Virus record (IMG/VR): IMGVR_UViG_2913112809_000001
DNA length: 4,492 nt
Direction: 5' to 3' (one strand)
Origin: a virus
Lineage: Duplodnaviria > Heunggongvirae > Uroviricota > Caudoviricetes
Shown: in pieces, positions 1,597 through 1,671 of the stretch
How the letters are laid out: each line of letters starts with the position of its first letter
Position numbering within the stretch: position 1 is the stretch's first letter
Translations under genes and position numbers: made by a program
Notes under the pieces: generated by a model
Database searches by the model: none
Seen by the model: only the letters and a program-made list of their open reading frames with translations
What the model was told of the DNA's origin: nothing

Positions 1597-1621
1597 TGTT
1601 TTCTCCGGTGCTGGAATGAAA

Positions 1622-1630
1622 GGGGGGGGG
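1622..1630. repeat. G9 homopolymer (C9 on the coding strand) in the leader upstream of xis
   Basis: Nine consecutive G at 1622..1630 read directly from the sequence, about 26-34 nt upstream of the preferred xis start and inside the optional N-terminal extension ('NPPPF'). Confidence 0.9.
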
Positions 1631-1671
1631 TTAACAGGCCTCATTGGGTTTGAGGCTGTGTGATTCCATGG

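Follow-up and report, generated by a model that had tools for sequence, protein, structure and literature searches.

Does a nine-base homopolymer in the leader of a prophage excisionase gene control that gene, or is it a mutable stretch of DNA with little bearing on it? The question is posed by a window of 4,492 nucleotides (the whole stretch of DNA analysed here), in which a sequence-only reading had picked out a nine-base G/C run in the xis leader and an ATG at position 1644 that is in frame, through the run, with the xis ATG at 1596. Both observations hold: the run is a G9 on the + strand at 1622-1630, the only one of its kind in the window, and 48 nt free of stop codons separate the two ATGs. 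From these features that reading had proposed that the run may vary in length, that the start at 1644 would give Xis a Pro-rich extension, and that tract length could modulate the form or level of Xis and hence prophage excision. We traced the leader through related prophages and examined its neighbours, its start codons and its predicted folding. We consider it fairly probable (about 0.72) that the C9/G9 tract is a slippage-prone homopolymer in the untranslated xis leader, placed at a joint between two modules, which evolves by microevolution and has little or no effect on Xis.

A prophage relic with a rare homopolymer

All genes around the tract lie on the minus strand, and their transcript therefore carries C9. 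Downstream of xis, int (1-1305, minus strand) encodes a 434-aa tyrosine integrase with Arm-DNA-bind_2 and Phage_integrase domains and abuts fliE in relatives. Upstream lies orf114 (1672-2016, minus strand), a conserved lambdoid early-left gene known as 'ORF114' in phage 434 and as gene 32 in HK022; its 3' end, together with a hairpin, constitutes a shared module upstream of the tract. It is preceded by orf104 (2081-2395, minus strand), an ORF of 104 aa, and between the two genes a strong hairpin with a T-run (2034-2053, minus strand) is predicted that resembles an intrinsic terminator. The A/T tail of that hairpin (2031-2036) is itself length-polymorphic among relatives, at 5, 6 or 7.

The remainder of the window has a patchwork character. 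Two 58-nt inverted repeats (2568-2625 and 3581-3638), 98% complementary to each other, flank a low-GC ORF of 233 aa (2794-3495) that has an Invasin_D4 domain, and the left repeat arm adjoins a truncated S24/HumD-like gene fragment (~2400-2577, minus strand). This unit resembles either a small mobile cassette or the termini of an insertion sequence. Further along are a fragment of a DNA polymerase III theta (HolE-like) gene (3687-3830, minus strand), a C-terminal fragment that is tail-fibre-like in appearance (3895-4188, + strand) and an intact ORF of 97 aa (4199-4492, + strand), all three of which appear to be debris of a degraded prophage.

The window is 100% identical to contig PDHY01000018.1 of assembly GCA_004745255.1. 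In that contig int abuts fliE, and the chromosome picks up again directly behind the 97-aa ORF that closes the window. We therefore take the window to be, in essence, a complete prophage relic of 4.5 kb lodged between fliE and genes of the chromosome. The functional reading proposed earlier fits poorly with such a relic, in whose 4.5 kb no phage regulatory region can be made out, be it a repressor, an antiterminator or an early promoter. At the fliE-fliF flank, identity to E. coli is only 89%, which points to another, non-coli Escherichia lineage as the probable host; the relic arrangement occurs in no RefSeq complete E. coli genome.

How unusual is the tract? On the + strand, positions 1622-1630 read GGGGGGGGG. 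Dinucleotide-preserving shuffles of the window gave a mean of 0.02 G9/C9 matches per window, with at least one match in 3 of 200 shuffles. Across ~505 kb of related enterobacterial and prophage DNA the C9 tract is the longest G/C run; no other run reaches 8, and only two reach 7. Hence, the nine-base run is not a chance feature of the window. Its length is also that of a contingency locus, for which a G/C run of about 7 or more is looked for (C9 here; 6-10 in relatives).

The xis start and its leader

The xis gene (1351-1596, minus strand) lies directly upstream of the integrase gene. Its 81-aa product matches Pfam PF06806 (DUF1233) with E = 2e-31, and the match starts at residue 7 of this short form, which is residue 23 of the long ORF. 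A Shine-Dalgarno (SD) sequence, GGAG (1603-1606, minus strand), stands 6 nt upstream of the ATG at 1596, and the arrangement (C/T)GGAGA-N-ATGAGCGAA is common to more than 80 Xis homologues from Enterobacter, Citrobacter, Lelliottia, Kosakonia and Providencia (60-86% protein identity), the sequence further upstream being unrelated. Xis is annotated as 81 aa in three RefSeq genomes and one phage record. The exact 81-aa protein is found in 1,247 collection blocks, where every gene call is 81 aa, and the 97-aa Xis form is not on record in that large collection. The PF06806 match, the adjacent tyrosine integrase gene and the conserved, SD-supported start identify a DUF1233 excisionase with its integrase, and, together with the annotations, they mark the 81-aa frame as the probable true coding sequence. 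We conclude from these comparisons that Xis is in all likelihood translated from ATG 1596.

The alternative start, the minus-strand ATG at 1644-1642, is 16 codons ahead of the ATG at 1596-1594. The long ORF that it opens (1351-1644) would be 97 aa, MRPVNPPPFIPAPEKT-MSEVN..., with MRPVNPPPFIPAPEKT as the extension, and the eight codons from the tract to the xis ATG hold no in-frame stop. The frame of this ATG depends on tract length (n), and we therefore compared it across the 26 related loci described below. In these loci, n = 6 or 9 gives an extension of 15 or 16 aa from the first ATG, n = 7 or 10 gives one of 13 or 14 aa from a second ATG (GGCATG), and n = 8 gives none. Some in-frame upstream ATG is found in 22 of the 26 loci because the commonest leader haplotype has ATGs in two frames, the second ATG lying in another frame from the first; five different extension peptides result. 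The extension is absent in the other four loci, including IdasGreatGrand, the only isolated phage in the set, which has n = 8, carries ACG at the site of the first ATG and lacks any upstream ATG in frame with xis. When shared ancestry is allowed for, the loci reduce to ~10 independent states, ~7 of them in frame vs ~5 expected, a difference that is not significant and leaves room for a weak selective preference for an in-frame upstream ATG.

Neither upstream ATG has a usable SD. On inspection of the leader, no SD precedes the ATG at 1644, and GAGG precedes the second ATG by only 1 nt. An isoform from 1644 would thus have no ribosome-binding site and would be in frame only at n = 6 or 9. Neither is its peptide conserved, given five versions among close relatives and unrelated upstream sequence in the homologues. 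The proposed Pro-rich extension of Xis is hard to sustain on these grounds: its ATG has no SD and belongs to a hairpin (see below), its peptide is not conserved, and homologues have no equivalent.

Why, then, is there an ATG at 1644? Between the stop codon of orf114 and the start codon of xis lies an untranslated spacer of 75 nt (1597-1671, minus strand), whose transcript is C-rich and G-poor (C 29, G 11, A 23, T 12; 39% C, 15% G). Within it, a hairpin GCCUCA-AACCCAA-UGAGGC belonging to the orf114 module (1638-1656, minus strand; predicted -7.6 kcal/mol) was recognised by alignment and a survey of contigs. The ATG at 1644 consists of the last loop base and the first two bases of the hairpin 3' arm. 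We examined the 3' end of orf114 wherever it occurred in viral contigs and the other loci collected, 134 times in all; a hairpin GCCUCA-N7-UGAGGC follows orf114 in 131 of these 134 lambdoid contigs, whichever xis module is next. The arms are unchanged in 117 of the 131, carry G.U-preserving changes (as read on the minus strand) in 11 and have one mismatch in 3; the loop varies freely. The hairpin lies a few to ~16 nt past the orf114 stop codon. At the position of ATG 1644, 125 of the 131 contigs have ATG and 6 have GTG, and in most of them xis belongs to a different family and is over 100 nt distant. We suggest that the ATG is accounted for by the hairpin and not by a role as a start codon. 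The hairpin itself might serve in RNA stability or processing, or act as a weak terminator.

The hairpin also marks one side of a joint. Homology to HK022, HK75, vB_EcoP-720R6 and g341c ends at CCTGTT (+ strand position 1633), immediately before the tract, and the next bases in the window are AA and then C9. Common to these four is the module made of the orf114 3' end, the hairpin GCCUCA-N7-UGAGGC and then CUGUU; they carry different int-xis modules. From the other side, homology with other DUF1233 xis modules ends at ~1606, and orf114-type BLAST matches start at 1633. The limits of the BLAST alignments, together with an alignment with other lambdoid phages, leave a lineage-specific joint segment, AA-C9-TTTCATTCCAGCACCG (1607-1632, minus strand), of which the tract makes up a part. 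The segment resembles GTTATCCC(CC)ATTTTGCC of Enterobacter-type leaders and TTCATTTCTC of lambda-type leaders, two suggestive likenesses that are each too short to establish descent.

Related xis modules differ from the window in what precedes the gene. Both the Enterobacter-type DUF1233 xis and the lambda-type GCCGCATCAATGCGGCTTTTT of HK022/720R6 have a GC hairpin and a T-run directly before the xis SD, and this T-run varies in length from 5 to 7. Placing a terminator directly ahead of xis appears to be a recurring design, one that the window's lineage lacks: no minus-strand intrinsic terminator is predicted in 1597-1671, where the conserved hairpin is followed by CUGUUAAC9 and not by a U-run.

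We also considered whether tract length could act through RNA structure, folding the leader with n = 4-12. The predicted minimum free energy (MFE) is -30.9 kcal/mol and constant for n = 6-12, the predicted unpaired probability of the SD is 0.13-0.14 over the same range, and the C tract is predicted to be 70-80% unpaired. A weak local hairpin, UUUCAUUCC-AGCACC-GGAGAAA (1600-1621, minus strand; a prediction only), starts immediately 3' of the tract and pairs the SD, and in the predictions it is unaffected by tract length. We infer from this constancy that tract length would be functionally neutral. The proposal that it sets the form or level of Xis, and hence excision, finds no support: most of its premises do not hold up on examination, the predicted fold and SD accessibility being constant and the extension not conserved. 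The placement of the tract is not that of a contingency locus either. Such a tract would be looked for within the coding sequence, between the -35 and -10 elements of a promoter or in a structured 5' UTR; this one lies upstream of a conserved start and SD, with no predicted promoter and with an unchanged predicted fold.

Several other readings of the leader were tried. An RNA-structure switch was rejected because MFE and SD accessibility do not change from n = 6 upward. A promoter-spacer model was rejected because no sigma-70-like promoter is predicted in the leader (1597-1671) on either strand. No Rfam family matches the leader; a search of the whole window at E-values up to 1 returned only a spurious snoRNA match inside int, and a known RNA family was rejected on that account. 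On the + strand, an ORF of 84 aa (1409-1663) crosses the tract in antisense to xis, and none of the other alleles would keep its frame intact. Transcriptional slippage is documented mainly for A/T runs and is not favoured at this tract. A template-strand G-quadruplex, formed by G9 with neighbouring GG/GGG runs, is speculative and would be at best a two-tetrad structure.

Tract-length alleles among related loci

To follow the tract through its relatives, we compared 26 loci that have the same xis leader and flanks that are 98-100% identical. They include three RefSeq E. coli chromosomes, in which the prophage adjoins fliE, and phage IdasGreatGrand (a literature search by this name found no paper on it); eight IMG/VR contigs and one metagenome contig, obtained by a variable-gap pattern search; ten NCBI assemblies, retrieved via the exact 81-aa Xis; and two more loci from the window's own lineage. 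This xis is present in only 3 of 5,426 RefSeq complete E. coli genomes, and a scan for the tract pattern gave no match in GTDB species-representative genomes and one match in metagenomes.

Five length alleles were found, as a contingency locus would have and as the sequence-only reading had anticipated; the invariant tract that would have spoken against that reading was not what we saw. The tract is 7 long in 13 of the 26 loci, 9 in five, 8 in three, 6 in three and 10 in one, and one further locus has an interrupted tract, TCCCCCC on the coding strand (lineage L019, CP056165.1), which shows that decay of the tract by substitution is also possible. A few of these length calls could be assembly errors; Logan contig L128, for example, has a T5-to-T4 error elsewhere. 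The loci from the relic have n = 9, 9, 9, 7 and 10, and full-length prophages have tracts of 6-9, with 7 the commonest. In an alignment of 2,070 bp, indels are almost confined to homopolymers, and the C tract has the most alleles.

We then placed tract length on a neighbour-joining tree of 23 of the 26 loci, built from 1,639 flanking columns, 75 of them variable. At least seven independent changes of length are needed on this tree, far more than at any ordinary site. Length nevertheless follows clades, with a clade of 12 at n = 7 and a clade of three at n = 6. Each of the four groups of loci that share identical flanks has one tract length throughout. The largest includes four separate NCBI assemblies (OZ040490, KE700180, CM127741 and JBTZQK01), UTAK-1 (USA) matches OkiPb01711 (Japan), and at n = 9 the NCBI and Logan assemblies agree; some IMG/VR and NCBI loci may be one genome, in which case these concordance counts would be inflated. 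Since independent assemblies with identical flanks always agree, the length differences are real heritable alleles and not assembly noise. There is likewise no sign of high-frequency switching, as such assemblies never differ in length, and the concordance of the identical-flank groups argues against switching that is very fast.

Elsewhere in these loci, Logan contig L128 has T5 reduced to T4 inside orf114 (equivalent to window 1919), and locus L018 has a frameshift (equivalent to window 344) that cuts int down to 370 aa. Both serve as a reminder that errors and pseudogenising mutations account for some of the homopolymer calls found in public assemblies.

Taken together, the alleles, the joint and the xis start would fit a single history. 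The tract would sit exactly at the recombination joint of two modules, one being the widely shared lambdoid orf114 with its 3' hairpin and the other the xis-int module of prophages that integrate beside fliE. Replication slippage, which we infer to be the mutational mechanism, would have altered the tract repeatedly (6 to 10) as the prophage lineage diverged, leaving heritable, clade-structured alleles. Xis would start at ATG 1596, with GGAG 6 nt upstream, and the in-frame ATG at 1644 would be an accident, part of a hairpin and in frame at some tract lengths. What the alleles record would be microevolution at a homopolymer and not a fast on/off switch, and the length of the tract most probably matters little, if at all, to Xis. 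Effects through an upstream ORF are conceivable, as one of the other two frames runs to an ATGA overlapping the start of xis and the remaining one to a TAA that lies four codons inside the gene.

We weighed this reading against three others. It is highly improbable that the length differences are sequencing or assembly artefacts and the real tract invariant. Homopolymer miscalls do exist in the data set (those in L128 and L018 described above), and the sequencing platforms are unknown for most loci; against this, length tracks phylogeny in clades of 12 and three, independent assemblies with identical flanks agree, and one lineage (L019) carries a substitution inside the tract. If the alleles are real, they might make up a contingency locus, in which ribosomes from an upstream ATG would, depending on tract length, yield an extended Pro-rich Xis, stop at ATGA or stop four codons into xis, and so tune Xis and excision frequency. 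Such a locus should have a long and polymorphic tract, which this one has. The 22 of 26 loci with an in-frame upstream ATG, supplied by two ATGs at n = 6/9 and n = 7/10, and the open frame of eight codons between the tract and the xis ATG would also suit it. We nevertheless regard it as very unlikely. The first ATG has no SD and lies inside a -7.6 kcal/mol hairpin that is conserved for reasons unconnected with xis, while the second has GAGG at a distance of only 1 nt. The extension varies in sequence and length, is absent from the isolated phage and three other loci, and has no equivalent in homologues. Identical-flank independent assemblies never differ in length, and the in-frame excess is not significant once shared ancestry is allowed for.

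The composition of the leader suggests another role, which is unlikely on balance but rather less so than a contingency locus. Poly(C) is the classic activator of Rho, and the C-rich leader with its poly-C core might be a Rho-loading (rut-like) site that replaces the pre-xis intrinsic terminator of relatives, such that only antiterminated early-left transcripts would reach xis-int and tract length could alter Rho loading. This would agree with 39% C and 15% G over 75 nt, with a tract predicted to be 70-80% unpaired, and with the GC hairpin and T5-7 found directly before the SD in most related xis modules (the HK022/720R6 type GCCGCATCAATGCGGCTTTTT included), for which the window's lineage has no predicted minus-strand counterpart. 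The case is, however, one from composition. At 75 nt the region is short, a stable hairpin takes up part of it, and alleles down to 6, as well as the interrupted one, persist in apparently intact prophages. A broader proposal would make the tract a contingency element of a temperate phage, in which either the shift of the upstream frame among three outcomes or Rho loading sets basal Xis and hence the rate of spontaneous excision or curing of fliE-site prophages; this, too, we hold to be very doubtful. The reading of a slippage-prone homopolymer in an untranslated leader therefore remains the one that we prefer.

Comparison with known systems

Phase variation mediated by simple sequence repeats (SSRs) is known from the contingency loci of Neisseria, Haemophilus and Campylobacter and from the poly-C promoter spacers of Bordetella fim genes. 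The xis-leader tract is like these classical loci in being a poly-G/C run of at least 7 placed near a gene's 5' end, where variants in length change an upstream reading frame. Unlike them, it lies neither within validated coding sequence nor in any recognisable promoter spacer, has no predicted length-dependent RNA structure and no conserved frame-dependent product, and shows no evident switching among identical-flank assemblies.

The surroundings of the tract are those of the lambda/HK022 early-left operon (...ea8.5 - small ORFs - xis - int): the genes follow one another as orf114-xis-int, orf114 occurs in both along with its 3' hairpin, and an SD of its own precedes xis. Where HK022/720R6 and the Enterobacter-type DUF1233 modules place a GC hairpin and a T-run ahead of xis, the window's lineage has a C-run joint and no predicted intrinsic terminator.

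What would follow depends on which reading is right. If the tract is a neutral hotspot, its value is modest: this prophage lineage could be typed by the length of the tract. It also shows that a lambdoid mosaic joint can carry the longest G/C homopolymer of its region, and it cautions annotators that the 97-aa form of the xis ORF should not be called. If tract length does affect Xis, this would be the first homopolymer-controlled prophage excision that our literature search has found for enterobacteria (the full-text search gave no precedent for a homopolymer-controlled xis), and spontaneous excision frequency would become a heritable, mutable trait.

Among described systems, the nearest to this tract is the class of strain-level homopolymer polymorphisms in Bordetella pertussis (Gogol et al. 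2007, PMC1891110). There, tracts that differ between strains are set apart from those that vary within single cultures, and an allele of the fimX promoter is given as changing transcript abundance 3.8-fold. The two systems (PMC1891110) have in common a G/C homopolymer that is longer than chance and polymorphic between closely related genomes. They differ in their setting: ours is an Escherichia host and a prophage xis leader at a module junction, known here from sequence alone. Within the scheme of that paper (PMC1891110), the xis-leader tract falls into the between-strain class, as its lineages differ in length and its identical-flank assemblies are stable.
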